From assembly GCF_000014785.1 (NCBI RefSeq), contig NC_008340.1, forward strand, positions 1,650,001 to 1,682,000: a stretch of DNA of 32,000 bases. Direction: 5' to 3'. The notes beneath the pieces are model-generated. The model had not been told where the DNA came from and ran no database searches. It saw only the letters and a program-made list of their open reading frames with translations. The translations under genes were made by a program, and so were the position numbers. Of the stretch, positions 1,121 through 29,522 are shown piece after piece; the stretch's first letter is position 1; every line of letters starts with the position of its first letter. Origin of the DNA: Alkalilimnicola ehrlichii MLHE-1 (GTDB lineage Bacteria > Pseudomonadota > Gammaproteobacteria > Nitrococcales > Halorhodospiraceae).

Positions 1121-3382
1121 CGCCGCGTCCGCCTCCCGGACGTTGATCTTCAGCTCGCCGTCCTCCACGCTGACCTCAACCTCGCCGCCGTCAGCAAGCT
1201 CCCCGAACAGCAGCTTCTCGGCCAGCGGCTTCTTGACGTGCTGCTGGATGATCCGGGCCATGGGTCGGGCGCCCATGCTGGGATCGTAGCCCTTCTCGCC
1301 CAGCCAGCGCCGCGCCGCACCATCGACCATGAGCGTAACCCGCTTTTCGGCCAACTGCACCGAGAGCTCGCGCACGAACTTGTCGACCACCCGCTGCACG
1401 TTGTCCTCGTCCAGCGGGTTGAACTGGACCACGGCATCCAGCCGATTGCGGAACTCCGGCGTGAACTGGCGCTTGATGGCCTCCAGCCCGTCGCTGCTGT
1501 GGTCCTGCGGCATGAAGCCGATGGAGCGACGGCTCATGTCCTCAGCGCCCGCGTTGGTGGTCATAATCAGAATGACATTGCGGAAGTCCGCCTCGCGACC
1601 GTTGTTGTCGGTGAGGGTACCGTGGTCCATCACCTGTAACAGCAGGTTGAAGACGTCCGGGTGGGCCTTCTCCAGCTCGTCAAGCAGGACCACCGAGTGC
1701 GGGTGCTTGATGACCTCCTCGGTGAGCAGGCCGCCCTGGTCGTAGCCCACGTACCCCGGGGGCGCACCGATGAGCCGCGAGACCGTGTGCCGCTCCATGT
1801 ACTCCGACATATCGAAGCGGATCAGCTTCACGCCCATCAGCTCGGCCAGCCGGCGGGAGACCTCGGTCTTGCCCACACCGGTGGGGCCGGAGAAGAGGAA
1901 GCTGCCCACCGGCTTCTCCGGCTGGCCCAGCCCGGCGCGGGAGAGCTTGATGGTGGAGGCGAGGGTGTCGATGGCCTCGTCCTGGCCGAAAATCAGCCCC
2001 TTGAGGTCCTTTTCGAGATTCTCCAGCACCTGCATGTCGGTGGCCGAGACCCGCTTCGGCGGGATGCGGGCGATCTTGGCCACAATGCCCTCGATGTCCT
2101 GCACCCCCACCGTCTTGCGCCGGCGGGACTTTGGCCGCAGCCGCAGCCGGGCGCCGGCCTCGTCGATCACGTCGATGGCCTTGTCGGGCAGCCGCCGGTC
2201 GTTGATGTAGCGGGCCGACAGCTCCGCGGCGGCGTTCAGCGCCGGCTCGGTGAAGCGCACCCCGTGGTGCGCCTCGAAACGGCTCTTCAGCCCCTTGAGG
2301 ATCTGCACCGTCTCGCTGACGCTGGGTTCACCCACGTCGATCTTCTGGAACCGCCGCGCCAGGGCGCGATCCTTTTCGAAGATGCCGCGGTACTCCTGGT
2401 AGGTGGTGGAACCGATGCACTTCAACTCGCCGCTGGCGAGCATGGGCTTGATGAGGTTGGAGGCATCCATCACCCCGCCCGAGGCCGAGCCGGCCCCGAT
2501 GATGGTGTGAATCTCATCAATGAACAGCACCGCATGCTGGTCGTTGCGCAGTTGTTGCAGCAAGGCCTTGAGCCGCTTCTCGAAATCACCGCGGTATTTG
2601 GTGCCCGCCACCAGCGCGCCCAAGTCCAGCGAATAGATGGTGGCATCGGCGAGGACCTCCGGCACCTGGCTGTCCTCGATCATCTTGGCCAGGCCCTCGG
2701 CGATCGCCGTCTTGCCGACGCCGGCCTCGCCCACGTAGAGCGGATTGTTCTTGCGCCGGCGGCAGAGGACCTGGATGGTCCGCTCGACCTCGTGCTCGCG
2801 GCCGATCAGGGGGTCGATCTGGCCCTTACGCGCCTTGGCGTTGAGGTTGGTGGCGTACTGATCCAGCGGCGAGTTACCCTGAGCCGGCTCCGCCTCCTCC
2901 TCCACGTTGCCGGTTCCGCCGGCGTCCTCGCCCTCCTCCGGGTCGTTGGCGACGCTGGAGGTGCCGTGGGAGAGGTAGTTGACCACGTCGAGACGGGAGA
3001 CGTTCTGCCGATGCAGGAAGTAAACCGCCTGCGACTCCTGCTCACTGAAGATGGCCACCAGGACGTTGGCGCCGGTCACCTCGCGTTTGCCGGAGGATTG
3101 CACGTGCAGGATGGCGCGCTGCAGGACCCGCTGGAAGCCCAGCGTCGGCTGGGTCTCGCGGGTGTCATTGGCGGGCAGCAGCGGCGTGGTCTCGGCCAGG
3201 AAGCCCTCCAGATCGCGGCGAAGCTTGTCCAGCTTGACGCCGCAGCCTTTCAGCACGGCCACGGCTGCCGGATTGTCGGTGAGGGCCAGCAGCAGGTGCT
3301 CCACGGTGAGAAACTCATGCCGTTTCTCCCTGGCATCCTTGAATGCCATGTTCAGCGTGAACTCCAGCTCTTTACTCAGCAT
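1112..3382 (-). CDS. clpA: ATP-dependent Clp protease ATP-binding subunit ClpA
   Basis: The 756-aa product starts MLSKELEFTLNMAFKDAREKRHEFLTVEHLLLAL. It has two AAA+ modules with Walker A motifs GEAGVGKT and GPTGVGKT. It appears collinear with E. coli ClpA (758 aa) and lies downstream of clpS. Confidence 0.97.
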   Translation of the reverse strand: MLSKELEFTLNMAFKDAREKRHEFLTVEHLLLALTDNPAAVAVLKGCGVKLDKLRRDLEGFLAETTPLLPANDTRETQPTLGFQRVLQRAILHVQSSGKREVTGANVLVAIFSEQESQAVYFLHRQNVSRLDVVNYLSHGTSSVANDPEEGEDAGGTGNVEEEAEPAQGNSPLDQYATNLNAKARKGQIDPLIGREHEVERTIQVLCRRRKNNPLYVGEAGVGKTAIAEGLAKMIEDSQVPEVLADATIYSLDLGALVAGTKYRGDFEKRLKALLQQLRNDQHAVLFIDEIHTIIGAGSASGGVMDASNLIKPMLASGELKCIGSTTYQEYRGIFEKDRALARRFQKIDVGEPSVSETVQILKGLKSRFEAHHGVRFTEPALNAAAELSARYINDRRLPDKAIDVIDEAGARLRLRPKSRRRKTVGVQDIEGIVAKIARIPPKRVSATDMQVLENLEKDLKGLIFGQDEAIDTLASTIKLSRAGLGQPEKPVGSFLFSGPTGVGKTEVSRRLAELMGVKLIRFDMSEYMERHTVSRLIGAPPGYVGYDQGGLLTEEVIKHPHSVVLLDELEKAHPDVFNLLLQVMDHGTLTDNNGREADFRNVILIMTTNAGAEDMSRRSIGFMPQDHSSDGLEAIKRQFTPEFRNRLDAVVQFNPLDEDNVQRVVDKFVRELSVQLAEKRVTLMVDGAARRWLGEKGYDPSMGARPMARIIQQHVKKPLAEKLLFGELADGGEVEVSVEDGELKINVREADAAGA

Positions 3383-3532
3383 GCCCTGGTCCTCAGTGAT
3401 CTGACGCCCCGGTTACGTCTGATGAATCAGACCGGGTGGGGGCGGGTCGGGTTCCCGACTGGGCGGCCCCCTTTCGCTCTATAGTAGCGTAACTGGGTAC
3501 GACGGGTGGCGCTTTCAAGGCACCGCCGCCGC

Positions 3533-3853
3533 TCAGGCCTCCTTCAGGGTACACATCAGCGGGTGCTCGTGCTGGCGGGACCAGTCGTTGACCTGGTTTA
3601 CCTTGGTTTCCGCCACGTCACGACTGAAGACCCCGCAGACGCCCTCTCCCCGGGTGTGGACATGCAGCATCACCTGGGTGGCCCGGGCGCGGTCCATGTG
3701 AAAGAACTTCTGCAGGACCTCCACCACAAAATCCATCGGGGTGTAGTCGTCGTTCAGGATGATGACCTTGAACAGGGGCGGCCGCTTGACCTGGGGCGGC
3801 GCCTCCTCCACCTGTGGGCCATGCTCCTGCCAGTCTCCTGCCTTGTCCGTCAT
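3533..3853 (-). CDS. clpS: ATP-dependent Clp protease adaptor ClpS
   Basis: The 106-aa product has the ClpS core [48 protein letters not shown] and lies directly upstream of clpA. Confidence 0.95.
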
Positions 3854-4093
3854 GGTTGATGATGTCCTGCTCGCTTGCGGTCAACGAAGGGTTTCCCCCT
3901 ATTTTAGGCCGAAGGTGGGGCCCGGCCAATGGTGAAAAAGGGCCTGGGCCACCATGAAGCGGCCCGGCCCCCTTACTGGAACCCATTGAAACCTCGTTAA
4001 AATCTCAGAACTGCTCCGCTTCGGTGGAACCGGTCAATGCCGTGACCGAGGATGCAAATATAAGTGGGGCATTGCAGCAATTGACAATCAATA

Positions 4094-5161
4094 ATGGTCG
4101 ATAAGACCATTGGCCTTATCAATACTGGCCGAGAGGGACCGGAAACAATCGTGGCGGGCAGTGGCAGGCTCTACTATAAACACAACCGACTCAAGCAGTT
4201 GCGGGCGTTTTGTCATGCCGCCCAGGAGGGCAGCATCTCCCGGGCGGCGCAGCGACTGGAGTTGAGCCAACCCTCGGTGTCGCTCCAGATCCAGGCCCTG
4301 GAGCGGGAACTGGGCATCGCGCTGTTCGAGCGCCGGGGCCCGCGCATCCGGCTGACCCCGGATGGCGAGACCCTGTACGAACTGGCCCAGCCTTTGGTGG
4401 AGGGCGTGGACGCCTTGCCCGAGCGGTTCGCCGCCCGCCACCAGCGGCTGCAGACGGGACGGCTGGACATCGCCGCCGGCGAGTCAACCACGCTCTACAT
4501 CCTGCCCGATCTGCTCAAACAGTTCATGGCCCGCTACCCCGGGGTCCATGTCAAGCTGCACAACCTGATCGGTCGCGACATGATCTCCGCCCTGCAGCAC
4601 GACGAGGTGGACCTGGCCGTGGGCTCCACCCTGGATCTGCCCGAGGACCTGAGCTACCGCGCCATCTATACGTATGACCTGCGCCTGATCCTCCCGCTGG
4701 GGCACCCGCTGGCGGAGAAATCCGAGCTCACCCTGGCCGATCTCGCCTCCGGCGAACTGATCCTGCCTCCCCGCCACCTGACCACCTGGCGGCTGGTGAA
4801 CCTGGTCTTCCAACAGCACAACATTCCCTACCGGGTGCGCCTGGAGGTGGGTGGCTGGGAGATCATCAAGCGCTACGTGGAGTTGGGGTTTGGCATCGGC
4901 ATTGCCAGCAGTATCTGTCTCAGTGGCTCGGAACGCCTGCACGTCAGGTCCCTGCCCGAGGTCTTCCCGCAGCGCACCTACGGGGTCATGCTGCGCAGGG
5001 GCCGCTATCTTTCGCCCCAGGCCAAGCGTTTCCTGGAGGTGATGGCGCCGGATATCTTCTCCGGCGAGGCGGACCTGGACGGCGAACGCCGCAAGGATGT
5101 CGCCAGCGAATCGGTCTTCATCCCCCGGGCCAGCGAGCATGCCCCGGACAAGGAGCGCTGA
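4094..5161 (+). CDS. LysR-family transcriptional regulator (start uncertain; an in-frame GTG at 4151 is an alternative)
   Basis: The N-terminal wHTH is LKQLRAFCHAAQEGSISRAAQRLELSQPSVSLQIQALERELGIALFERRG, followed by an LTTR substrate-binding domain. The ATG at 4094 has no SD and adds about 25 residues ahead of the usual LTTR start. There is a C-terminal tail of about 30 aa beyond the typical length. Confidence 0.85.
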   Translation: MVDKTIGLINTGREGPETIVAGSGRLYYKHNRLKQLRAFCHAAQEGSISRAAQRLELSQPSVSLQIQALERELGIALFERRGPRIRLTPDGETLYELAQPLVEGVDALPERFAARHQRLQTGRLDIAAGESTTLYILPDLLKQFMARYPGVHVKLHNLIGRDMISALQHDEVDLAVGSTLDLPEDLSYRAIYTYDLRLILPLGHPLAEKSELTLADLASGELILPPRHLTTWRLVNLVFQQHNIPYRVRLEVGGWEIIKRYVELGFGIGIASSICLSGSERLHVRSLPEVFPQRTYGVMLRRGRYLSPQAKRFLEVMAPDIFSGEADLDGERRKDVASESVFIPRASEHAPDKER

Positions 5162-5631
5162 TGGTCTGGAAACCCCATGTCACGGTGGCGGCCGTGGTCG
5201 AGTGGGAGGGCCGCTTTCTGATGGTCGAGGAGCGGCCCGAGGGGGACGCCGTGGTCTACAACCAGCCCGCCGGCCATCTGGACCCCGGCGAGAGCCTGAC
5301 CCACGCGGTCATCCGCGAGACCCGGGAGGAGACTGCCTGGGGCTTTCAGCCGGAAGCGCTGGTGGGGGTCTACCTCTGGCAACCGGACCCGGCGGACACC
5401 GAGCGCAGCTTTCTGCGCATCGCCTTCACCGGGTCGCTGACCGAGCACGACCCAAATCAGGCGCTGGATCAAGAGATTATACGCACTTGCTGGAAGCGTC
5501 CTGAAGAGCTGGAGGCCCACGCGGTGGGGCTGCGCAGCCCGCTGGTCATGCGCTGCATCCGCGATTACCAGGCCGGCCATCGCTACCCGCTGGCGCTATT
5601 GGGGCATCTGCTCCCGCCCGGCTGCCCATGA
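5161..5631 (+). CDS. nudJ: NUDIX hydrolase, NudJ-like
   Basis: The Nudix box is GHLDPGESLTHAVIRETREETAW. The N-terminus (KPHVTVAAVV) and C-terminus (LRSPLV..CIRDYQAGHRYPL) resemble E. coli NudJ. It sits directly upstream of mnmA as in E. coli. An AGGAG SD lies 5 nt upstream, and the ATG overlaps the LysR stop (TGATG). Confidence 0.85.
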   Translation: MVWKPHVTVAAVVEWEGRFLMVEERPEGDAVVYNQPAGHLDPGESLTHAVIRETREETAWGFQPEALVGVYLWQPDPADTERSFLRIAFTGSLTEHDPNQALDQEIIRTCWKRPEELEAHAVGLRSPLVMRCIRDYQAGHRYPLALLGHLLPPGCP

Positions 5632-5666
5632 TAAACTACCGGGTTTTGGGCATCCTCGGTTGACCT

Positions 5667-6767
5667 ATGGGCAAAACGGACAAGGTCGTGGTGGGCCTCT
5701 CCGGCGGGGTGGATTCCGCCGTGGCGGCGATGCGCCTGCTCGAGGCAGGGCATCACGTCGAGGGCTTGTTCATGAAGAACTGGGAGGATGACGACACCCT
5801 CACCCACTGCGCCGCCGAAGAGGACCTGGCCGAAGCCCAGGCCGTGGCCGATCACCTGGGTATCCGCCTGCACCGGGCCAACTTCGCCGCCCGCTACCGG
5901 GAGCAGGTCTTCGAGGTGTGCCTGCGCGAGTACCGGGCCGGGCGCACGCCCAATCCCGACATCCTCTGCAACCAGCGGATCAAGTTCCGCGCCTTCCTGG
6001 ACCACGCCCTGAGCCTGGGGGCATCGAAGGTGGCTACCGGCCACTATGCCGGGGTTGGCGAGCAGGGGGGGCGATTCACCCTGCTCCGGGGCGAGGATCC
6101 GCACAAGGACCAGAGCTACTTTCTCTACACCCTGGGCCAGGCGCAGCTCCGCCACAGCCTGTTCCCGCTCAGTGAGCTGCCCAAGCCCGAGGTGCGCCGG
6201 CAGGCCGCTGCAGCGGGGCTGCCCAACCACGCCCGCCGGGACAGCACCGGCATCTGCTTTATCGGCGAGCGCGACTTTCGCGCGTTTCTGAGCCGCTACA
6301 TTCAGCGCAGCCCGGGGCCCATGGAGACCCCCGAGGGGCAGGTGGTGGGTGAGCATCAGGGGTTGGCCTTTTACACCCTCGGCCAACGCCGCGGTCTGGG
6401 CCTGGGCGGCCTGCCCGATCACGACGAAGGGGCCTGGTACGTCGCCGACAAAGACATGGCGCGCAACGCCTTGATCGTCGTGCAGGGCCACGCCCACCCG
6501 CGCCTGCTGTCCACCGCGCTGGTGGCGGATGAGCTCTCCTGGGTGGCGGGTGCTCCCCCCACCCTGCCCCTGCGCTGCACGGTCAAGTCACGCTATCGTC
6601 AACAGGATCAGCCCTGCGCCCTCGAGGCAGGCCCGTCGCCAACCAGCGTGGTGGTCCGCTTCGATACCCCGCAGCGGGCCGTCACCCCGGGCCAGTCGGT
6701 GGTCTTCTACCAAGGCCGGGTCTGCCTGGGCGGCGGCATCATCCAGACCCGAACCCCTGTGGAATAA
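5667..6767 (+). CDS. mnmA: tRNA-specific 2-thiouridylase MnmA
   Basis: The 366-aa product has the PP-loop motif [12 protein letters not shown], then NWEDDD, CN and ATGHYA motifs. The nudJ-mnmA-hflD order is conserved. Confidence 0.95.
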
Positions 6768-6781
6768 GGACCTCATCACCC

Positions 6782-7399
6782 ATGCGAGACCGTTTCGAGG
6801 AACAGGCGCTGGCGCTGGGGGCCGCGATGCAGGCCCTGGGTCTGGTGCGCGAACTCGCCACCGCCGGGCGCCTGGACGACGCCCAGGCCGAGCCGCTGAT
6901 GAGCAGCTTGGTCAAGCCCTACGAGGGCGACCTGGATCGGCTCTATGGCGGCCCCACTGCCCTGGCGCCCGGCCTGCGCCGGCTGGTCACCCAACTGACC
7001 AATCCGCAGAGTATGGAGTCCACCCGCTATCTGGCCGGTGTCATGCACCTGGAGAAAAAGCTCTCCAAGAACCGGGCCATGCTGGGGCAACTGGGCGAGG
7101 GCCTGGAGGCGGCACGCCGGCAGGCCGATTATTTCCATCCCCTGCATGAGAACGTCCTGCGCAACCTGGGCGCGCTCTATGGCGAGACCATCAGCCAGTT
7201 GGGGCCGCGCATCATGGTGCGCGGTGATCCCGGCCATCTCCAGGACGAGCGCATCGCCGCCGGCATCCGCACCATGCTGCTGGCCGCCATTCGCGCCGCC
7301 AGCCTCTGGCGGGAGTGTGGCGGCGGCAAACTGACCCTCATCCTGCGCCGCCAGCGGCTGGTACAGGCGGCCCATGCCCTTCTGGAACGCGTGGACTGA
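6782..7399 (+). CDS. hflD: High-frequency-of-lysogenization protein HflD homolog
   Basis: The 205-aa product starts RFEEQALALGAAMQALGLVRELATAGRLD, which is typical of HflD. It sits immediately downstream of mnmA as in enterobacteria. Confidence 0.85.
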   Translation: MRDRFEEQALALGAAMQALGLVRELATAGRLDDAQAEPLMSSLVKPYEGDLDRLYGGPTALAPGLRRLVTQLTNPQSMESTRYLAGVMHLEKKLSKNRAMLGQLGEGLEAARRQADYFHPLHENVLRNLGALYGETISQLGPRIMVRGDPGHLQDERIAAGIRTMLLAAIRAASLWRECGGGKLTLILRRQRLVQAAHALLERVD

Positions 7400-7430
7400 G
7401 CCGCGCCCGCGGTGAGGCGACAGCCGCCGT

Positions 7431-7493
7431 AAAAAACCCCCGATGGCCAGCCAGCCACCGGGGGTTTTTTCGGGCCCACCCCGGGGGTGGGCC
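7431..7493. terminator. Bidirectional intrinsic terminator between hflD and acnB
   Basis: A6 (7431-7436) is followed by an 11-bp stem with one mismatch, CCCCCGATGGC/GCCACCGGGGG (7437-7464, loop CAGCCA), then T6 (7465-7470). A second 8-bp GC hairpin, GGCCCACC/GGTGGGCC, lies at 7473-7493. The A-run and T-run flanks let it work on both strands. Confidence 0.8.
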
Positions 7494-7517
7494 GTCACTA
7501 CTCACCGCGCGCCCCTA

Positions 7518-10097
7518 TCAGGCGGCGGAGAGCCGCTCCGCGGCCTTGGCGGCGGCGGCACGGTACTCCTCGATGCGATCAAAGTTCATGTACCGATAGA
7601 TCTCACCGGCCATGGTGTTCAACTCACCGGCGTAATCCAGGTACTCCTCCGGGGTCGGCAGCTTGCCCTTGATGGCGGCCACCGCTGCCAGTTCCGCCGA
7701 CGCCAGGAAGACGTTCGCCCCGTCACCCAGACGGTTGGGGAAGTTCCGGGTGGAGGTGGAGACCACCGTGCTGTTGGGTGCCACCCGGGCCTGGTTCCCC
7801 ATGCACAGCGAGCACCCCGGCATCTCGGTGCGGGCGCCAGCCTTGCCGTAGATGCTGTAGTAGCCCTCCTCGGTAAGCTGCGCCTGGTCCATGCGGGTGG
7901 GCGGCGACAGCCACAGGCGAGTGGGCAGGCTGCCCTGGTACTTCTCCAGCAGCTTGCCGGCGGCCCGGAAGTGACCGATGTTGGTCATGCAGGAGCCGAT
8001 GAAGACCTCGTCGATGTCCTGGCCGGCCACGTCGGAGAGCAGGCGGGCATCGTCGGGGTCGTTCGGGGCGCAGAGGATGGGCTCCTTGATCTGATCCAGG
8101 TCGATCTCGATCACGTGGGCATACTCCGCATCCTTGTCGGCCCGCATGAGGCTCGGGTTCTCCAGCCAGTCCTCCATCGCCCGGGCGCGACGCTCCAGGG
8201 TGCGCGGATCGCCGTAGCCGTTCTCGATCATCCAGCGCAGCATGGTGATGTTGGAGCGCAGGTACTCGGCCACCGAGTCCTCGGACAGGGTGATGGTGCA
8301 GCCGGCGGCGGAGCGCTCGGCGGAGGCGTCGGAGAGCTCGAAGGCCTGCTCCACGGTCAGGTCCTCCAGGCCCTCGATCTCGAGGATGCGGCCGGAAAAG
8401 CAGTTCTTCTTGCCCTTCTTCTCCACGGTGAGCAGCCCGTCCTGGATGGCCTGGTACGGAATGGCGTGCACCAGATCGCGCAGGGTGACGCCGGGCTGGC
8501 GGGTGCCTTTGAAGCGCACCAGCACCGACTCGGGCATGTCCAGGGGCATCACGCCGGTGGCGGCGGCAAAGGCCACCAGACCGGAGCCGGCCGGGAAGGA
8601 GATGCCCATGGGGAAGCGGGTGTGGCTGTCGCCACCGGTGCCCACGGTGTCGGGCAGCAGCATGCGGTTCAGCCAGGAGTGGATGATGCCGTCACCGGGG
8701 CGCAGGGAGACGCCGCCACGGGTCATGATGAAGTCCGGCAGGGTGTGGTGGGTGTTCACGTCCACCGGCTTCGGGTAGGCGGCGGTGTGACAGAAGGACT
8801 GCATCACCAGGTCGGCCTGGAAGCCCAGGCAGGCCAGGTCCTTCAGCTCGTCCCGGGTCATCGGGCCGGTGGTGTCCTGGGAGCCCACGGTGGTCATCCT
8901 GGGCTCGCAGTAGGTGCCGGGGCGCACGCCCTCGACGCCGCAAGCCTTGCCCACCATCTTCTGCGCCAGGGTGAAGCCCTTGCCGGAGTCGGCCGGGGCC
9001 TGCGGGCGGCGGAAAATGTCGGAGGCGGCCAGGCCCAGGCTCTCGCGGGCCTTGTCGGTGAGCCCACGACCCACGATCAGCGGGATGCGGCCACCGGCGC
9101 GCACCTCGTCCAGCAGCACCGGGGAGCGCAGCTCGAAGGTAGTCAGCACCTCGTCGGTGCCGTGCCTGCAGACCTTGCCCTCGTAGGGATAGATGTCGAT
9201 GACATCGCCTGTCTCGAAGGCATCCACGTCCATCTCGATGGGCAGAGCGCCGGAGTCTTCCATGGTGTTGAAGAAGATGGGCGCGATCTTACCGCCGATG
9301 CAAACGCCGCCGGCGCGCTTGTTGGGGACGTAGGGAATGTCGTCGCCGATGTACCAGAGCACGGAGTTGGTGGCGGACTTGCGCGAGGAGCCGGTACCCA
9401 CCACGTCACCCACCAAGGCGACCGGGTGGCCCTTCTCTTTCAGCTCGTTGATCTGCTCCTCGGCGTTGGTAACGCCCTCCCGGGGCATCTTGTACATGGC
9501 CTTGGCGTGCAGGGGGATGTCCGGGCGGCTCCAGGCGTCGGGGGCCGGGGAGAGATCGTCGGTGTTGGTCTCGCCGGGTACCTTGTAGACGGTGACGGTC
9601 AACTTCTCCGGCACTTCCGGCTTGGCCAGGAACCACTCGGCATCGGCCCAGCTCTGCACCACGGCCTTGGCGTGTTCGTTGCCGGCCTTGGCCTTCTCCT
9701 CCACGTCGTGGAAGGCGTCGAACATCAGCAGGGTGTGCTTCAGCTGCTCGGCGGCGACCGGGGCCAGCTCGGCGTCGTCCAGCAGCTCCACCAGGGTGGC
9801 GATGTTGTAACCGCCCTGCATGGTGCCCAACAGCTCCACCGCGCGCTTGCGGTCGATCAGCGGGCACTCGGTCTCGCCCTTTGCCACGTCGGACAGGAAC
9901 GCGGCCTTGACGTAGGCGGCCTCGTCCACGCCGGGGGGGACACGGTAGGTGATGAGATCGAGCAGGGTCTGCTCCTCGCCGGCCGGCGGGTTTTTCAGCA
10001 GCTCGACCAGTTGCGCGGTCATCTCCGCATCCAGGGGCTTGGGCGGCACGCCCTCGGCGGCCCGCTCCTCTACATGCTTACGGTAGGCTTCAAGCAC
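7518..10097 (-). CDS. acnB: Aconitate hydratase B (bifunctional aconitase / 2-methylisocitrate dehydratase)
   Basis: The product appears collinear with E. coli AcnB from (V)[24 protein letters not shown] onward. Fe-S ligand regions [12 protein letters not shown] and [10 protein letters not shown] are present. I trimmed the 943-aa track ORF to the GTG at 10097 (859 aa, against 865 in E. coli), which has GAGGGTGA upstream. Confidence 0.95.
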
Positions 10098-18829: not shown

Positions 18830-19276
18830 TCAGTAGCTGAAGAAGCGGGTGTCCCCCTCCATGAAGGCGCCCACATCGTCGGGGGTGGCCACGCCCACGC
18901 CGTCGATCAGGTCCTCTTCGGTGAAGTCGGTGTTGGGCAGGAAGATGGCACAGACGTCCACCTGGACACCGGCCTGCATCAGGCCCTGCATGATCTGCTG
19001 GGCGGTGGCGTCGGGACCGGCCAGGGTCGGGCCATCGAAAGCGTTGGTGCCCATCACGCCGCCGTCACAGCAGAGCAGGATGCGGACCTCGGTACCCTGC
19101 TCCACCAGCTGCCGGGTCAGGATCATGGTCATGGCCTGGGCCTGCGGGCGATCGGTGTTCACGGTCACCAGCACCCGGTCGGCCTTCTCGTCCCCGTGGG
19201 AGGCGGCCGGCAGCGCCAGTGGGGCCAGGGCCAGGGCGAAGGTGGCGGCAATCAACAGACGTTTGATGTGTTGCAT
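18830..19276 (-). CDS. DsrE/DsrF-like sulfur-relay family protein with an N-terminal signal peptide
   Basis: The Sec-type leader is MQHIKRLLIAATFALALAPLALPAAS. The layout is DsrE/YchN-like (VLVTVNTD...GTEVRILLCCDGGV...MQAGVQVDVCAIFLPN...EDLIDGVGVATPDDV). The family call rests on pattern recognition only. Confidence 0.55.
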   Translation of the reverse strand: MQHIKRLLIAATFALALAPLALPAASHGDEKADRVLVTVNTDRPQAQAMTMILTRQLVEQGTEVRILLCCDGGVMGTNAFDGPTLAGPDATAQQIMQGLMQAGVQVDVCAIFLPNTDFTEEDLIDGVGVATPDDVGAFMEGDTRFFSY

Positions 19277-21387: not shown

Positions 21388-22590
21388 ATGCTGCCCCGTC
21401 TGGTCCTGCGCACCACCCTGCCCCTGCTGCTGGCGGTCCCCGCCCTGCTCCATGCCGGTGACGACTTCCAGCGCTGCGTGGCCACCCTGGGCGATCAGGC
21501 CCGGGAGGCAGGGCTGTCCGAGTCGGCGATCGAGGCGGCCCTGGCGGACATCACCCCACTGGAGCGGGTGATCAGCAGCGACCGCCGCCAGCCGGAATTC
21601 GTGCAGACCTTCTGGACCTACCTGGACCAGCGGGTGACCGACCGACGGGTTGAGCGTGGGCGGGCATTGCTGGACGAGCACCAGGACCTGCTGTGGCGCA
21701 TCCACGCGGATTACGGGGTCCGGCCCCAGTATCTGCTGGCCCTCTGGGGCATGGAGACCAATTTCGGCGGTTATTTCGGTGATGTGCCCGTCATCGACGC
21801 CCTCGCCACCCTGGCCTGCGACACCCGGCGCAGTGCGTTCTTCCGCACCCAGGTGGTGGAAGCAATCCGAATTATCGACGAAGGGCATATGGATCGCGAC
21901 GGCATGGTGGGCTCCTGGGCCGGAGCCATGGGCCACACCCAGTTCATGCCCTCGACCTTCACCGCCTACGCGGTGGATTACGACGGCAGCGGGCGCATCG
22001 ACCTGTGGAACAGCCTGCCGGACGCCTTTGCCTCCTCGGCCAATTACCTGCGGGCCCTGGGTTGGCGGGACGGCCACCGCTGGGGCCGGGAGGTGATCCT
22101 GCCGGAGGGCTTCGATTATGCCCTGGCGGCGCCGGAGGCACGGCGCAGCGTCGCCGCCTGGCGGGAATTGGGGGTGCAACGGACCGACGGCCGGCTTGTG
22201 CCCGACAGCGAGATCGAGGCGGAATTGCTGCTTCCCGGCGGGTACCGCGGCCCAGCCTTCCTGGTCTATGACAACTTCCGTAAGATCATGCGCTGGAACG
22301 CCTCCACCTCCTACGCCCTGGCGGTGGGCATTCTGGCCGACCGGATCGCCGGGACGGGGGACCTCAAGACCCGCCCCGCCGAGCCGCCGGAGGCGATGCG
22401 CATCGAGGCGGTGAAGCGGCTACAGGAGACGCTGAACGCCCTGGGCTATGAGGCGGGCCCGGTGGACGGCCAGCCTGGCCGGCAGACCCGGAAGGCGGTC
22501 CGCGCCTTCCAGCAGGATGCGGGGCTGCCTGCGGACGGTCACCCCTCACCCCGGGTGCTGCAAGCGGCCGAGGCGCGGACCGGCGATTAG
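21388..22590 (+). CDS. Lytic murein transglycosylase (MltB/SLT_2 family) with a C-terminal peptidoglycan-binding domain
   Basis: It has a signal peptide and the catalytic motif LWGMETNFG, then GAMGHTQFMPSTF. The C-terminal PG_binding_1 repeat is LQETLNALGYEAGPVDGQPGRQTRKAVRAFQQDAGLPADG. Confidence 0.9.
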   Translation: MLPRLVLRTTLPLLLAVPALLHAGDDFQRCVATLGDQAREAGLSESAIEAALADITPLERVISSDRRQPEFVQTFWTYLDQRVTDRRVERGRALLDEHQDLLWRIHADYGVRPQYLLALWGMETNFGGYFGDVPVIDALATLACDTRRSAFFRTQVVEAIRIIDEGHMDRDGMVGSWAGAMGHTQFMPSTFTAYAVDYDGSGRIDLWNSLPDAFASSANYLRALGWRDGHRWGREVILPEGFDYALAAPEARRSVAAWRELGVQRTDGRLVPDSEIEAELLLPGGYRGPAFLVYDNFRKIMRWNASTSYALAVGILADRIAGTGDLKTRPAEPPEAMRIEAVKRLQETLNALGYEAGPVDGQPGRQTRKAVRAFQQDAGLPADGHPSPRVLQAAEARTGD

Positions 22591-23081
22591 CCCTCCACCC
22601 GGCTGAGCACAGCCTCCCAGCGGATGGCGCCATCGCCATCCACCTCGAAGGCGAAGATCGCAGCGCCGCGAATATGCCCGTCCTCGAACACGGCATAGAC
22701 CCAATGATCGTTCAGGACCGCCATCTCCTCGGCCACGAAGTAATGGGTGCCGCCCAGTACCGGCTCCTCCGGGATCAAGTCCGGCCGCCCCTGGAGGTCG
22801 TCCAGCAGGCCCTGTTCCGGGTCATCACCAAGGCCCGCCTGCTCCAGCTGCCGGATACCGAAGGTGCTCAGGCCCAGGGCGCGGGGGCGGGCAGCGGGTG
22901 CAGGTGCCTCCGGCGCGGCCTCCCGTTCCGCCTGCATGCGGGCCAGTTCCTCCTCCGCCGCCTCGCGCTCGCCCACCTGCTGGAACAACAGCACCGTCAG
23001 CCACCCCACCAATACGATCAACATCAGCGCCACCAGGCGCCACATCAGCCGATCCCGGATATCCCGGTTATTCCTTGTCAC
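22587..23081 (-). CDS. Hypothetical single-pass membrane protein (no family recognised)
   Basis: I prefer the GTG at 23081 because GGAGGGAGGA lies 4-8 nt upstream. The track start is a GTG at 23099. The N-terminus is positively charged and is followed by the TM helix WRLVALMLIVLVGWLTVLLF, a charged coiled segment and a C-terminal domain of about 90 aa. It is last in the minus-strand gene array. Confidence 0.55.
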   Translation of the reverse strand: MTRNNRDIRDRLMWRLVALMLIVLVGWLTVLLFQQVGEREAAEEELARMQAEREAAPEAPAPAARPRALGLSTFGIRQLEQAGLGDDPEQGLLDDLQGRPDLIPEEPVLGGTHYFVAEEMAVLNDHWVYAVFEDGHIRGAAIFAFEVDGDGAIRWEAVLSRVEG

Positions 23082-23095
23082 GCGTCCTCCCTCCG

Positions 23096-23686
23096 TCACC
23101 GGCGGTCCCCGGCCAGCATCTCCCGCAGCGGCGCCTCGTCCAGCAGGCGCTCCAGCATCCGGGTGACCACTTCATTGATCATCTGTTCGTTCTCAGTCTG
23201 ACTTGGCGAGTGCACCAGCCGTCGTTCCGAGCGGGCGCGGGCCTTGCCGGTGTACCGGTCCCCATCCCCCCGCTCCACGCGGGCCGACATCCGGCCCTCC
23301 AAGTGGATCCCCCGGGTGACCACCCCGGCCTGGCGTTCGTATTGCAACGCCTCCAGGGCGATGTGCAGGCGCCGGTCGGCGGGAACGCCGGCCGCCACCA
23401 CCTCAAACCCGCGCCGCTCCAGCGCGCGGGTCACGCCGCGACGAATGCCCAGCGCCGGGTCCTCGTAGGGCTCGATGCGCGCCTCACCGCCGCGCTCGCC
23501 GTCGCGGAAGCCGATCACCGGGTCATCGCGCCGGTCCTCGACCGTCAGGGCGACGGTAATGCCCTGCCCTTCATCGCTCCGGGCCACGTCCGGCCGCGGC
23601 TCCAGCCGCACCGTTTGGGATCCCGGGGCGCAGCCGGCCACCAGCAGGGCCAGCATCAGAACTGCGATAACGGCTCGCGGTGCCAT
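23096..23686 (-). CDS. YajG-like lipoprotein
   Basis: The internal start gives MAPRAVIAVLMLALLVAGC, with a V-A-G-C lipobox. The 196-aa length and segment order resemble E. coli YajG (Lipoprotein_16 family), from memory. The first 42 residues of the track ORF are Arg/Pro/Ser-rich junk that overlaps the lemA 3' region. Confidence 0.6.
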   Translation of the reverse strand: MAPRAVIAVLMLALLVAGCAPGSQTVRLEPRPDVARSDEGQGITVALTVEDRRDDPVIGFRDGERGGEARIEPYEDPALGIRRGVTRALERRGFEVVAAGVPADRRLHIALEALQYERQAGVVTRGIHLEGRMSARVERGDGDRYTGKARARSERRLVHSPSQTENEQMINEVVTRMLERLLDEAPLREMLAGDRR

Positions 23687-25292: not shown

Positions 25293-25982
25293 TCACCCGC
25301 ACTTGGACTCGCCGCAGTTCAGGCAGGTGAGGCAGCCGTCCATCTGCACCATCGCCTTGGTGTTGCACTTGATGCACAACTCAGCGTTCTCCGGAAAGCC
25401 GCCGCGCTCGCCGTCACCATCGTTGGCCGGGGCGCCACCGCCCTCCACTTCGGCACGCTTCTGCTCGATAAAGCGCTTCTGGTGCTCGTCCAGCTCCTCG
25501 CTCTCGAGCATGCCGATGGACTTGAGGTGGGTCTCGATGACGTCCCCGATCTCCGCCACCAGCGAAGGCATGAACCGGCCCCCGCGTTTGAAGTAACCGC
25601 CGCGCGGATCAAACACCGAACGCAGCTCCTCGGCCAGGAAGGTGCAGTCGCCCCCCTTGCGGAACACCGCGGAGATAATACGGGTCAGCGCCACGATCCA
25701 CTGGAAGTGGTCCATGTTCTTCGAGTTGATGAAGATCTCGAAGGGCCGGCGCACCTCGTGCTCGGTGCCCGGGTTGAGGACCACGTCGTTGATGGTGACA
25801 TAGAGCGCGTGCTCCGAGAGCGGGGTCTTGATCTTATAGGTCTGCCCCTCCAGCGCCTCCGGGCGCTGGATGCGTTCGTGCATGTGCTCGATGTCGACCT
25901 TGTTCCCGCTCTCGGCCGGCTTTTCGTCCTCCGGCTTGACCACGCCGTAGTCGACGATCTTGGATTGGATCTTCTTCACCAT
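25293..25982 (-). CDS. nrdJb: Class II (adenosylcobalamin-dependent) ribonucleotide reductase, small C-terminal subunit NrdJb
   Basis: The 229-aa product corresponds to the C-terminal portion of unsplit NrdJ (TSCPD-like region LYVTINDV...PFEIFINSKNMDHFQWIVALTRIIS). It has a Cys-rich tail, CIKCNTKAMVQMDGCLTCLNCGESKC. It starts 47 nt after the nrdJa stop with a GGGAGAG SD. Confidence 0.85.
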   Translation of the reverse strand: MVKKIQSKIVDYGVVKPEDEKPAESGNKVDIEHMHERIQRPEALEGQTYKIKTPLSEHALYVTINDVVLNPGTEHEVRRPFEIFINSKNMDHFQWIVALTRIISAVFRKGGDCTFLAEELRSVFDPRGGYFKRGGRFMPSLVAEIGDVIETHLKSIGMLESEELDEHQKRFIEQKRAEVEGGGAPANDGDGERGGFPENAELCIKCNTKAMVQMDGCLTCLNCGESKCG

Positions 25983-26029: not shown

Positions 26030-29000
26030 TCAGAACTTACCGTAGTAGCCTTCCTTGAGGGCGTCATAGAGGTTGGCGGCGGTGTGGGTCTCGCCGTCGT
26101 ACTCCACCTCCTCGTCGCCCCGCAACTCCACCTCGGTGCCGTCTGCCAGCTTGAACTTGTAGAAGGTATTGGTCAGGTCCTTCTCGGTGACCAGCACCCC
26201 TTGGAACGCCTCGGGGTTGAAGCGGAAGGTGGTGCAGCCCTTCAGCCCCTGCTGATAGGCATAGCGGTAGATGTCCTTGAAGTCCTCATAGGGGTAGTCC
26301 GTGGGCACGTTGGCGGTCTTGGAGATGGAGGAGTCCACCCACTTCTGGGCCGCCGCCTGGATGTCCACGTGCTGCTTCGGGGTCACCGAGTCGGCGGTGA
26401 TGAAGTAGTCCGGGAGGTTGCGCGTCTCCGGGTCGGTGGACGGGACCGCCTCCGGGTCAATGAAGTGGCGGTAGGCCAGCAGCTCGAAGGAGAAGACATC
26501 GACCTTCTCCTTGGACTTGCGCCCCTCGCGGATCACGTTGCGAAAGTAATGATGCGCAAAGCTCGGCTCAATGCCGTTGCTGGCGTTGTTGGCCAGCGAC
26601 AGTGAGATCGTGCCGGTGGGCGCGATCGAGGTGTGGTGGGAGAAGCGCGCGCCCTTCTCGGCGATGGCCTCCACCAGCTCGGCGTCCACCTCGGCCACCC
26701 GCTGCATGTAGTGGCTGTACCTGGCCAGCAGCACCCGGCCCTTCACCTTGTCGCCCACCTTGTAGCCGTCCACGGCCATCTCCGGGCGCTTGGCCAGCAT
26801 GGCCTCGTCCACGGTGTAGGTCTCGTCCATGATCGGCGCCGGGCCCTTTTCCTCGGCCAGTTCCACACCGGTGCGCCAGCCGGCCAGGGCCATCTCGCGG
26901 GAGACCTTCTCGGTGAAGGCCAGCGATTCGGCCTCACCATACTTCATGCGCAGCATGGTCAGGGTGGAGCCCAACCCGAGAAAGCCCATGCCATGGCGGC
27001 GCTTGCGCTCGATCTCCCGGCGCTGCTCATCCAACGGCAGGCCGTTGATCTCTACCACGTTGTCCAGCATGCGGGTGAAGACCGAGACCACCTCGGCATA
27101 CTCCTGCCAGTCGAAGCGCGCTTTCTCGGTGAAGGGATCGCGCACGAACTTGGTCAGGTTAACCGAGCCCAAAAGGCAGGCGCCGTAGGGGGGTAAAGGT
27201 TGCTCCCCGCAGTTGTGGGCATGAAGGCCATTGGCATCGAAGGTGTTGATACCGGGTACCTGGACGTCGTAGACCTCCTCGGTGCCGGCGGCCTCCACCG
27301 CCACCACGCGGGCCACAAACCGCTCGCGATTGAGGGTGCGCTGGTAACGGTCCAGCAGCGCCTCGAGGCGTGCCTGCTTGTCACTATTGGCAAAGCCGAT
27401 GAGGTCGCGGAACCGCGCAAGGTTCTCACCACTGATCACCAGCTCGTGCTGAGCACGGGTGGCGTACTCAGCGCTCCCGCCGTTGCCGTCGGGCAACACG
27501 GTGTTGCCGGCCGGACGACGATCACGGTAGAGGGTGGAGGCGATACCCAGGCGCAGCAGCATGCGCTGCGCCGCCTCCAGATTGTCGCTGTCGGACTGGG
27601 CCAGGCGCACCGACACGCCCTTGCGCTGGCTGCCCTGGACGGAGCCGTCGGCGTCGTACAGGCCGCGCAGGAAACCCTTGTAGAAGTCGCTGGAACCCTG
27701 CTCCACACCATCGGTGATCCGCTTGCTGCCTGGCCGTATGCCCAGCTCAAGGGCGAGATCGCGGATCGCGGAGGTGGCCAGGCGGTACTCGCCACGGCCC
27801 GGGACCTCACACCAGCCGGTGAAATCGGCCCGGTGCGGCAGCGAGCGGGCGGCCTCGAGGCCCTCGGCCATCACCTCCTCGACGCCGCCCGGCAGTCCGG
27901 CCGGCACCCCGTTGGCCGCAGCCGCGGTGCGCCAGACCGACAGCACGGCCTTATCCGATTTGAGGGTGCCGTCACCCAGCAGCAGCCCCATCAGGTAGCC
28001 TTCATTCCGGCCATGGCGGCCGGCCCACTCGGCGTTGGTGCGGTGGTCGTTGAGCAGGACGCGATCACCGGCCTGGAGCTGCCCCGCTTCGCACCATTCG
28101 GTCTCAGTGCGGTAACGGGTAAAGGCACTGACCCGGCGTACACGGTGGTCGGCGGTGAGCTTGAGCCGATAGCCCTCGGCCGTACGCAGCTCGACTACCT
28201 CTTTGGTCGCCGTCCGGAAGAACCCTTCGTCACCACTGGGGTGGTCCGTGCCGTCGACCCGGGCAGAAAAGCGCCGACCGACCAGCGCGGCCACCCGCCG
28301 CGGCCCGTCGGCGGTCTGCACCCAGGTGTCGGCGGTGACGCACGGGTTGGTGGCGCGGATGTCCTCGCAGAACCAGTTGTTGTTCATCTCGTTGACCCGG
28401 TCGATCAGGATGAACCCCGGCTCCGCGAAGTCGTAGGTGGAGGTCATGATCATGTCCCACAGCCGCCGGGCCTTGACGGTGCGGTAGATGCGGCAGGCCA
28501 CCAGCCCCTGCTCGTCGCTGATATAGGGCTCGGTGGTCGGCCACTCGCGCCAGATGACCTGCTCGCTGTCGGTGAGGTCGATGTTGTCCGTCTCCGCCTC
28601 GTGCTTGGTGAGGGGGAAGGCCAGCGGCCACTGGGCATCATCCTCCACCGCCTGCATGAACTCCTCGGTGATCAGCAGGCTGAGGTTGAACTGGCGCAGC
28701 CGGCCGTCCTCGCGCTTGGCGCGGATGAAGTCGAGCACGTCCGGGTGGCCCACATCGAAGGTGGCCATCTGCGCCCCGCGGCGGCCGCCGGCGGAGGAGA
28801 CGGTGAAGCACATGCGGTCGTAGATGTCCATGAAGGACAGCGATCCGGAGGTGTAGGCGCCGGCCCCGGAGACATAGGCGCCGCGCGGGCGCAGGGTGGA
28901 GAACTCGTAGCCGATACCGCAGCCGGCCTTCAGGGTCAGGCCCGCCTCGTGCACCTTCTGCAAGATGTCGTCCATGGAGTCCTGGATGGTGCCGGAGACC

Positions 29001-29317
29001 GTGCAGTTGATGGTGGAGGTGGCGGGCTTGTGCGCCCAGGCACCGGCGTTGGAGGTAATGCGCCCGGCGGGAATGGCGCCGCGGCGCAGGGCCCAGAGGA
29101 AGCGCTCGTACCAGTGCTCACGCAGCTTCTTGGTCTTTTCCACCTCGGCCAGGGCACGCGCCACGCGCTGCCAGGTGTGATCGACGGTCTCGTCGATCAC
29201 CTGGCCGTCCTTGGACTTGAGGCGGTATTTCTTATCCCAGATGTCCGCGGACGCGCTCTGTAACGGAATGTCGGCCGTGGCATTCGGCAGGGCGCGCACC
29301 TTGGCTGCTGTGGTCAT
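26030..29317 (-). CDS. nrdJa: Class II ribonucleotide reductase large subunit NrdJa, interrupted in frame by an intein (precursor 1095 aa; predicted spliced extein 718 aa)
   Basis: RNR motifs are present (TINCTVSG, GCGIGYEFSTLRPRG, SSAGGRRGA). After removing residues 326-702, the active-site loop reads ATNP|CGEQPLPPYGACLLGSVNL. Confidence 0.95.
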   Translation of the reverse strand: MTTAAKVRALPNATADIPLQSASADIWDKKYRLKSKDGQVIDETVDHTWQRVARALAEVEKTKKLREHWYERFLWALRRGAIPAGRITSNAGAWAHKPATSTINCTVSGTIQDSMDDILQKVHEAGLTLKAGCGIGYEFSTLRPRGAYVSGAGAYTSGSLSFMDIYDRMCFTVSSAGGRRGAQMATFDVGHPDVLDFIRAKREDGRLRQFNLSLLITEEFMQAVEDDAQWPLAFPLTKHEAETDNIDLTDSEQVIWREWPTTEPYISDEQGLVACRIYRTVKARRLWDMIMTSTYDFAEPGFILIDRVNEMNNNWFCEDIRATNPCVTADTWVQTADGPRRVAALVGRRFSARVDGTDHPSGDEGFFRTATKEVVELRTAEGYRLKLTADHRVRRVSAFTRYRTETEWCEAGQLQAGDRVLLNDHRTNAEWAGRHGRNEGYLMGLLLGDGTLKSDKAVLSVWRTAAAANGVPAGLPGGVEEVMAEGLEAARSLPHRADFTGWCEVPGRGEYRLATSAIRDLALELGIRPGSKRITDGVEQGSSDFYKGFLRGLYDADGSVQGSQRKGVSVRLAQSDSDNLEAAQRMLLRLGIASTLYRDRRPAGNTVLPDGNGGSAEYATRAQHELVISGENLARFRDLIGFANSDKQARLEALLDRYQRTLNRERFVARVVAVEAAGTEEVYDVQVPGINTFDANGLHAHNCGEQPLPPYGACLLGSVNLTKFVRDPFTEKARFDWQEYAEVVSVFTRMLDNVVEINGLPLDEQRREIERKRRHGMGFLGLGSTLTMLRMKYGEAESLAFTEKVSREMALAGWRTGVELAEEKGPAPIMDETYTVDEAMLAKRPEMAVDGYKVGDKVKGRVLLARYSHYMQRVAEVDAELVEAIAEKGARFSHHTSIAPTGTISLSLANNASNGIEPSFAHHYFRNVIREGRKSKEKVDVFSFELLAYRHFIDPEAVPSTDPETRNLPDYFITADSVTPKQHVDIQAAAQKWVDSSISKTANVPTDYPYEDFKDIYRYAYQQGLKGCTTFRFNPEAFQGVLVTEKDLTNTFYKFKLADGTEVELRGDEEVEYDGETHTAANLYDALKEGYYGKF
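27212..28342 (-). mobile_element. Intein (377 aa) with a LAGLIDADG homing-endonuclease domain, inserted before the catalytic Cys of NrdJa
   Basis: The N-terminal splicing block is C-VTADTWV (Cys1 = TGC at 28342-28340). Block B is LKLTADH. The LAGLIDADG motifs are YLMGLLLGDGTL (27962-27997) and FLRGLYDADGSV (27638-27673). The C-terminal blocks are EEVYDVQVPGINTFDANG and LHAHN (Asn at 27214-27212), followed by the +1 Cys (27211-27209). I checked both junction codons directly on the sequence. Confidence 0.9.
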
Positions 29318-29475: not shown

Positions 29476-29522
29476 CCACAACATCTCCACCGCTAATCCA
29501 CCGCAGACACCAGATGTTGTGG
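29476..29522 (-). promoter_or_regulatory. Candidate tandem NrdR boxes upstream of nrdJa
   Basis: Box 2 on the minus strand is CCACAACATCTGGTGT (29522-29507) and matches 12/16 positions of the NrdR consensus acaCwAtATaTwgtgt, as I recall it. Box 1 (29476-29491, CCACAACATCTCCACC) keeps only one half-site. The centre-to-centre distance is 31 bp, about 3 helical turns. The two share a perfect 11-bp inverted repeat, CCACAACATCT / AGATGTTGTGG. Confidence 0.4.

Follow-up and report, generated by a model that had tools for sequence, protein, structure and literature searches.

The nrdJa-nrdJb locus

We analyzed a 32,000-nucleotide stretch of the Alkalilimnicola ehrlichii MLHE-1 genome (contig NC_008340.1, positions 1,650,001 to 1,682,000; hereafter the window, with positions counted from its first letter). 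Its minus strand carries nrdJa, a ribonucleotide reductase (RNR) gene whose reading frame is interrupted, directly before the codon for the thiyl-radical cysteine, by what is very probably an intein with an embedded homing endonuclease. The full NrdJa open reading frame (ORF) matches TIGR02504 NrdJ_Z (4.3e-168; 560.6 bits, cut-off 399.95), and its match to PF02867 (5e-125) is divided around the insertion. The next gene, nrdJb, corresponds to the C-terminal part (580-759) of NF006417. Because this separate TSCPD-domain ORF lies 47 nt downstream of nrdJa, the pair is assigned on domain content to the split NrdJa/NrdJb type of class II, B12-dependent RNR. The same gene order is found in an intein-free locus on a metagenome contig (L081, described below). 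The features of the locus are as follows:

26030..29317, minus strand: nrdJa precursor ORF, 1095 aa, intein included (TIGR02504, PF02867)
28343..29317, minus strand: N-extein, residues 1-325, ending in ...NWFCEDIRATNP, with Pro at -1 (translation)
27212..28342, minus strand: intein, 377 aa, 41.2 kDa, residues 326-702 of NrdJa (translation, Pfam, NCBIfam, AlphaFold2, Foldseek)
28013..28342, minus strand: N-terminal splicing (HINT) region, intein residues 1-110, with Cys1 at 28340-28342 (TIGR01445; aligns with the Mtu RecA mini-intein)
28145-28156, minus strand: block B, T63-A-D-H66 (translation)
27353..28012, minus strand: LAGLIDADG homing-endonuclease domain, intein residues ~111-330 (PF14528)
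27962-28000, minus strand: LAGLIDADG motif 1, GYLMGLLLGDGTL, LLGD124G, with D124 (translation)
27638-27676, minus strand: LAGLIDADG motif 2, GFLRGLYDADGSV, YDAD232G, with D232 (translation)
27212..27352, minus strand: C-terminal splicing region, intein residues 331-377, with block F VYDVQVPGINTFDANG and D359 (alignment to RecA blocks F/G)
27212-27217, minus strand: block G, His376-Asn377 (translation)
26030..27211, minus strand: C-extein, residues 703-1095 plus the stop codon, starting with Cys+1 (27209-27211)
25293..25982, minus strand: nrdJb, 229 aa, TSCPD domain, 47 nt downstream of nrdJa (PF12637, 2.4e-7)

Anatomy and fold of the intein

In translation, the insertion begins CVTADT at residue 326 and ends HAHN at residues 699-702, between the terminal IRATNP of the N-extein and a cysteine. 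A first-pass annotation of this DNA had placed a 377-aa insertion of this form (CVTADT...HAHN/C; slashes mark splice junctions or insertion points throughout) at 27212-28342, which proved exact to the base. It had also proposed that removing the insertion would restore the RNR active-site loop; deletion of residues 326-702 in silico indeed yields a 718-aa protein in which the ATNPCGEQ loop is contiguous. The computed masses are 122.3 kDa for the precursor, 81.1 kDa for the spliced product and 41.2 kDa for the intein, so that the earlier estimate of ~41 kDa for the intein stands but that of ~79 kDa for the spliced product does not.

Searched alone, the insertion matches Pfam LAGLIDADG_3 (PF14528; 1.6e-26, 92.8 bits, cut-off 22.5), Pfam Intein_splicing (PF14890; 6.3e-12, 46 bits, cut-off 35.8) and TIGR01445 intein_Nterm (1e-6, 29.6 bits, cut-off 24.5), as well as the intein portions of NCBIfam's Pyrococcus-type RNR, DnaB, GyrA and RecA models. 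These Hint and LAGLIDADG matches above cut-offs for residues 326-702 agree with its description in the first-pass annotation as a full-size LAGLIDADG intein. That annotation had further listed an intact block B and terminal His-Asn, and these are present (T63/H66 and H376/N377) within intact blocks A, B, F and G; the acidic residues of both LAGLIDADG motifs, also said to be kept, are D124 and D232. The roles of intein catalytic residues are reviewed in PMC4031507.

A sequence search of the PDB matched only mini-inteins, those of Mtu RecA and DnaB, and these weakly (no E-value below 5e-4). An AlphaFold2 model, made from a 34-sequence alignment, has a predicted local distance difference test (pLDDT) score of 93.5 and a predicted template modeling (pTM) score of 0.92. 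Secondary structure assigned to this model by DSSP shows a two-lobed endonuclease of alpha-beta-beta-alpha-beta-beta-alpha fold, with a helix at residues 112-124 followed by strands and a second helix at residues 218-232 again followed by strands. The top Foldseek matches in the PDB are all endonuclease-bearing inteins (TliVMA, 7qsu, 3e-18; PI-PfuI, 1dq3, 2e-14; PI-SceI, 4e-14), and the free-standing LAGLIDADG enzyme I-DmoI comes next (~3e-7, with a template modeling score (TM-score) of ~0.6 on the target). The anatomy, the catalytic residues and the fold of the insertion are thereby established: its endonuclease is a monomeric double-motif LAGLIDADG enzyme with both catalytic Asp residues in place. 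We are confident, though short of certain, that the whole is a class 1 HINT intein with this endonuclease embedded in it, inserted in nrdJa directly N-terminal to the thiyl-radical Cys.

The insertion site lies directly before the radical cysteine

No gap crosses the junction when the spliced sequence is aligned with Thermotoga maritima NrdJ (1xje): ATNPCGEQ falls on STNPCGEI within the stretch INSTNPCGEIGLS, and Cys+1 falls on chain residue 322. In work by Larsson et al. in 2004, Cys322 of the T. maritima enzyme was reportedly identified as the radical residue. On this alignment, which fits the earlier placement of the insertion immediately before the thiyl-radical Cys, Cys+1 is both the splicing nucleophile and the RNR thiyl-radical Cys of the N-P-C-G-E loop. 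A precursor that has not spliced should have no activity, since its loop is interrupted and its splice nucleophile is the radical Cys. The first-pass annotation had likewise argued that no active enzyme could form without splicing, and the unspliced precursor cannot have an intact finger loop. The insertion point is the most frequent intein site in class I and class II RNRs (Dassa et al. 2009, PMC2677866).

Relationship to known inteins

The 1095-aa protein is identical to A. ehrlichii MLHE-1 ABI56820.1 / WP_011629215.1 / UniRef100_Q0A8L7, and RefSeq names WP_011629215.1 an 'intein-containing adenosylcobalamin-dependent ribonucleoside-diphosphate reductase'. The name of the RefSeq/UniProt entry records that an intein is present, whereas the boundaries and the state of the endonuclease are absent from it. 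InBase reportedly also listed an 'Aeh RIR1' intein. Among bacterial proteins RNR ranks second in number of inteins, at 211 (PMC4760082). With those at the radical site (PMC2677866) the A. ehrlichii intein shares its position directly N-terminal to the radical Cys that serves as +1 nucleophile, with no difference in kind.

A comparable intein was described in 2015 in NrdJa of Azotobacter chroococcum NCIMB 8003 (Achr_580), where LAGLIDADG_3 intein sequence occupies aa 321-690; that type is missing in A. vinelandii and Pseudomonas but occurs in Rhodanobacter and a small number of further proteobacteria (PMC4465626). Compared by description, the two inteins share the split nrdJa/nrdJb host and about the same position (321 vs 326) but differ in length (370 aa vs 377 aa); the A. 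chroococcum intein was not among the best 80 genome loci of the scan described below. Structurally, TliVMA (7qsu), PI-PfuI (1dq3, from the Pyrococcus furiosus RNR) and PI-SceI (1vde) have the same combination of HINT and double LAGLIDADG domains, with TM-scores of ~0.6, although sequence identity to them is only 13-16%. At 377 aa the A. ehrlichii intein is shorter than PI-PfuI (454) and PI-SceI (454), and it is without an extra stirrup or DNA-recognition domain. The Bacillus phage SPbeta bnrdE intein is a phage-borne LAGLIDADG intein of an RNR (tblastn E = 6e-18 over 81% of the query), but it is only ~21% identical and its host gene is the class Ib nrdE.

The intein is therefore already known, given the intein-containing annotation of the protein, the canonical RNR site and the published nrdJa counterpart. 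The first-pass annotation had cautioned that RNR active-site inteins are a known class, and this holds more strongly than it stated: RefSeq names this exact protein intein-containing, and the site is the most frequent one in RNRs. Beyond correct annotation the case matters little; it shows the commonest RNR intein in a clean, well-preserved form, and nothing in it should surprise a specialist. The free intein would be a new LAGLIDADG specificity for the highly conserved nrdJ active-site codons, which may serve as a rare-cutter or splicing tool. For studies of the homing cycle, the family data offer modest material: two lineages competing for one site, 7 dead endonucleases, and no fewer than 73 genomic and 31 viral copies.

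An intein family across genomes and viruses

The genome scan covered one genome per GTDB species, and the best 80 of 598 relatives were kept. A radical-site intein is present at all 80 retained loci. At 72 of them it belongs to one lineage, CVTADTW[VI]...HN/CGEQ, which has 73 members counting the window copy; members range from 352 to 389 aa and share 47-71% identity with the window copy, so that no other copy found exceeds 71% identity to the A. ehrlichii allele. Residues C1, T63, D65, H66, D359, H376, N377 and C+1 are invariant (73/73), and the endonuclease residues Asp124 and Asp232, both present in the window copy, are found in 67/73 and 66/73 members, respectively. The length of the window copy is modal for the lineage, and it departs from family-conserved positions at only 4 of 120 (R16, K61, Y229, N319), all of them conservatively.

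At the exact same NP/CGEQ site, 8 species carry a second intein lineage, ~28-31% identical to that of the window (loci L059, at 3973-5094, L063, L064, L068, L069, L073, L076 and L074). Seven of these copies end VTGQ/C, with a C-terminal Gln and a penultimate Gly rather than His-Asn, and the Crenothrix copy (L074) ends VTGN. Atypical inteins with a C-terminal Gln are known (Amitai et al. 2004, as cited in PMC4031507). Two intein lineages compete for one homing site.

Of 80 IMG/VR viral contigs, at least 31 (L085/L086 and others among L087-L146) have a homologous intein at the NP/C...N/C[GS]E site of an RNR gene; identities are 30-60%, with one copy at 60%. Because homologous inteins occupy the same RNR site in these contigs, phages are plausible vectors for the family.

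Two loci of the scan are unusual. In a Dokdonella sp. metagenome-assembled genome (L051, match 3001-7575), the nrdJa open frame is 1553 aa long and holds two inteins: the one at the radical site and a further one upstream, which ends ...HN/CGIGYEFS, before the conserved Cys of the GCGIGYEFS motif (residue 132 in the window protein). The other (L047) is a gammaproteobacterial-type nrdJa with the lineage's intein, 66% identical, on contig00013 of an assembly that bears the name Bacillus subtilis subsp. subtilis SK7B5; it is probably contamination or a mislabelled contig.

Empty sites, distribution and selection

Intein-free NrdJa alleles are common: many metagenomic fragments that are 70-82% identical have a contiguous ATNPCGEQ. 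The comparison with intein-less nrdJ alleles that the first-pass annotation had suggested thus gives an uninterrupted site in proteins of up to 82% identity. At the DNA level, the empty site of L081 (TTCTGCGAGAACATCCGCGCGACCAACCCC/TGCGGCGAACAGCCGCTGCCGCCCTATGGC) matches the joined window flanks at 49 of 60 nt. The nrdJa gene of L081 (3451-5608, on an ENA metagenome contig) is called as three gene fragments of 202, 324 and 112 aa, with the junction region intact; the fragmentation is probably a frameshift error of long-read assembly rather than a real split.

Among the family loci, identity of the intein to the window copy is uncorrelated with identity of the exteins (r = -0.19). Arhodomonas sp. 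SL1 (84%) and Halorhodospira neutriphila (79%) have the closest or near-closest host exteins, and Arhodomonas is in the source's own family, Ectothiorhodospiraceae; both carry, at the same site, the different intein lineage, only ~30% identical. In several close host pairs, synonymous divergence (dS) is greater in the intein than in the flanking exteins (L004/L006, ~1.0-1.4 vs 0.36; L045/L046, ~0.8 vs 0.26). The distribution is sporadic and decoupled from host phylogeny. This, the empty sites, the higher dS of the intein and the viral copies all point to mobility.

Across family pairs, the ratio of nonsynonymous to synonymous divergence (dN/dS) is 0.03-0.2 for the endonuclease domain and 0.04-0.17 for the splicing domain, with comparable values for the extein flanks. 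Because the endonuclease values are comparable to those of the splicing domain and the exteins, the endonuclease appears to be generally maintained by selection, a conclusion at the level of the family rather than proof for the A. ehrlichii allele. At that level, purifying selection, like the sporadic distribution and the empty-site alleles, is established.

A run of A/T-ending and rare codons crosses the 3′ splice junction (window 27150-27300, codons ~681 to C-extein ~722): GTA, GGT, GAT, AAT, CTT, CAT / CAA, CCT, TTA, CTT, TTG, GTT. At the 5′ junction, GC content at third codon positions (GC3) is 1.0. We considered a co-conversion tract at the 3′ junction and rejected it: among 40-codon windows of other genes the run is only in the 3% tail, the intein itself contains a stronger A/T-codon cluster, and no locus has the same unusual flank.

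Proposed mechanism and alternative explanations

From the residues in place, we propose that the 122-kDa precursor is translated and that Cys1, aided by T63 and H66, would carry out an N-S acyl shift at the Pro(-1)-Cys1 bond. Cys+1 would then attack the thioester (trans-thioesterification) to give a branched intermediate; cyclization of Asn377, aided by His376 and Asp359, would free the 41-kDa intein; and an S-N shift would form the native peptide bond, restoring the ATNP-CGEQ finger loop in an 81-kDa NrdJa that would work together with NrdJb. The freed intein, or its endonuclease domain, probably recognizes and cuts a ~20-40 bp intein-free nrdJ site (...ACCAACCC/TGCGGCGAGCAGCC...), and recombinational repair of the cut nrdJ would copy the intein in (homing). 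Splicing, DNA cleavage and any current mobility in A. ehrlichii are inferred from sequence and model.

Several observations weigh against this proposal. The Pro at -1 is dictated by the host motif, and work on the Mth RIR1 intein, located at the same RNR site, reportedly found Pro(-1) to be unfavourable for the first splicing step and to slow it. The block-F His of the RecA intein aligns with Asn366 here; the equivalent residue is Asn in 68/73 members of the lineage, and the block-F Asp/His positions have been termed 'less conserved' (PMC4031507). As to mobility, no empty target allele was found in A. ehrlichii, where both recorded strains carry the intein (the proteins of the two strains differ at 2 positions, one within the intein). 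With the site filled in both, the endonuclease may at present lack a target in the species, and homing there may be dormant. Composition gave us no reason to propose a recent acquisition, and we rejected it: the GC3 of the intein, 0.83 against 0.91-0.94 in the exteins, is within the range of the other window genes (0.82-0.91). Finally, 7 of the 73 members have lost a catalytic Asp or carry deletions (L048, L053, L055, L056, L057, L071, L072); such degenerate copies are the expected decay stage of the homing cycle, and decay does occur in this lineage.

The main rival to a mobile intein is a fixed, dormant one: an element competent for splicing but immobile in A. ehrlichii, with an endonuclease that does not cleave or has no target and a domain kept as a folding scaffold or not yet decayed. 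The occupied, nearly identical strains, the fully ameliorated composition and the decay visible in relatives all fit this, as does the rank of the window copy, only 52nd of 73 in closeness to the family consensus. Yet the copy has kept the two catalytic Asp residues and agrees with the family at 116 of 120 conserved positions, purifying selection on the endonuclease across the family is as strong as on the splicing domain, and the element is distributed independently of host phylogeny; we consider immobility a serious possibility but the less likely one. Much less probable, in our estimation, is that the intein is a regulatory switch, in which splicing at the radical Cys is gated by redox (for example through a Cys1-Cys+1 or nearby disulfide), temperature or a ligand, so that active NrdJ forms only in suitable conditions such as low oxygen. 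Both junction nucleophiles are Cys, with a further Cys at -9, NrdJ is an O2-independent reductase, and the intein has long been retained under purifying selection; conditional splicing is documented for other inteins (PMC4513877, PMC11409957). Against this, nothing specific to the A. ehrlichii intein supports gating, close relatives often have intein-free alleles, which shows the intein to be dispensable for the host, and the loss of endonuclease catalytic residues in 7/73 together with the sporadic distribution fits a selfish element. We give slightly lower odds still to the particular form in which the intein would be a post-translational gate on the O2-independent NrdJ, its splicing controlled by redox, B12 or substrate and the enzyme active only when conditions are reducing or low in O2. 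If true, the benefit of gating could help to explain the persistence of the intein with an intact endonuclease in an arsenite-oxidizing haloalkaliphile.

We regard it as extremely improbable that the segment is no intein at all and belongs instead to NrdJa as a lineage-specific structural domain, or represents a cleavage-only domain of the bacterial intein-like (BIL) or Hint kind. The bare fact of an insertion is all that speaks for it, whereas all intein blocks are present, including the terminal HN and the +1 Cys, together with a LAGLIDADG domain; the segment interrupts the catalytic finger loop; and orthologues lack precisely this segment rather than sharing it as a structural domain, the outcome that the first-pass annotation had named as fatal to its proposal. 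BIL domains are Hint domains whose host proteins are variable and not conserved, and they typically have neither a +1 nucleophile nor an endonuclease. Here the host site is conserved and catalytic and both the +1 Cys and the endonuclease are present, so we rejected that assignment.

Window context

Apart from the intein, the genes of the window have housekeeping functions: clpA, clpS, a LysR regulator, a NUDIX hydrolase, mnmA, DUF489, acnB, acnA, motY, a thioesterase, mazG, a TetR regulator, a glutathione S-transferase (GST), ispG, pyrD, a ParA-like ATPase, mltB, a lipoprotein, LemA, a patatin-like protein, nrdJb, nrdJa itself and tex. The intein had been called the only mobile element in the window, and a Pfam scan of ~30 ORFs is in keeping with this, with no transposase or integrase among them and three ORFs without a Pfam match. 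These three have gene-like codon composition (GC3 0.80-0.89) and lie at 18830-19276, 22587-23099 and 428-727, all on the minus strand. The window contains no tRNA genes and 0 Rfam matches.

Upstream of nrdJa, a search for the NrdR box consensus with up to 3 mismatches gave 0 matches, Rfam gave 0 riboswitch matches, and a crude regular-expression search of 16 related loci found no upstream conservation of NrdR type. An inverted repeat, CCACAACATCT-N25-AGATGTTGTGG, lies at window 29476-29522 (minus strand), ~160-205 nt before the start codon of nrdJa and upstream of it. Taken as a pair of 16-mers, it has centres 32 bp apart, an arrangement reminiscent of tandem NrdR boxes.

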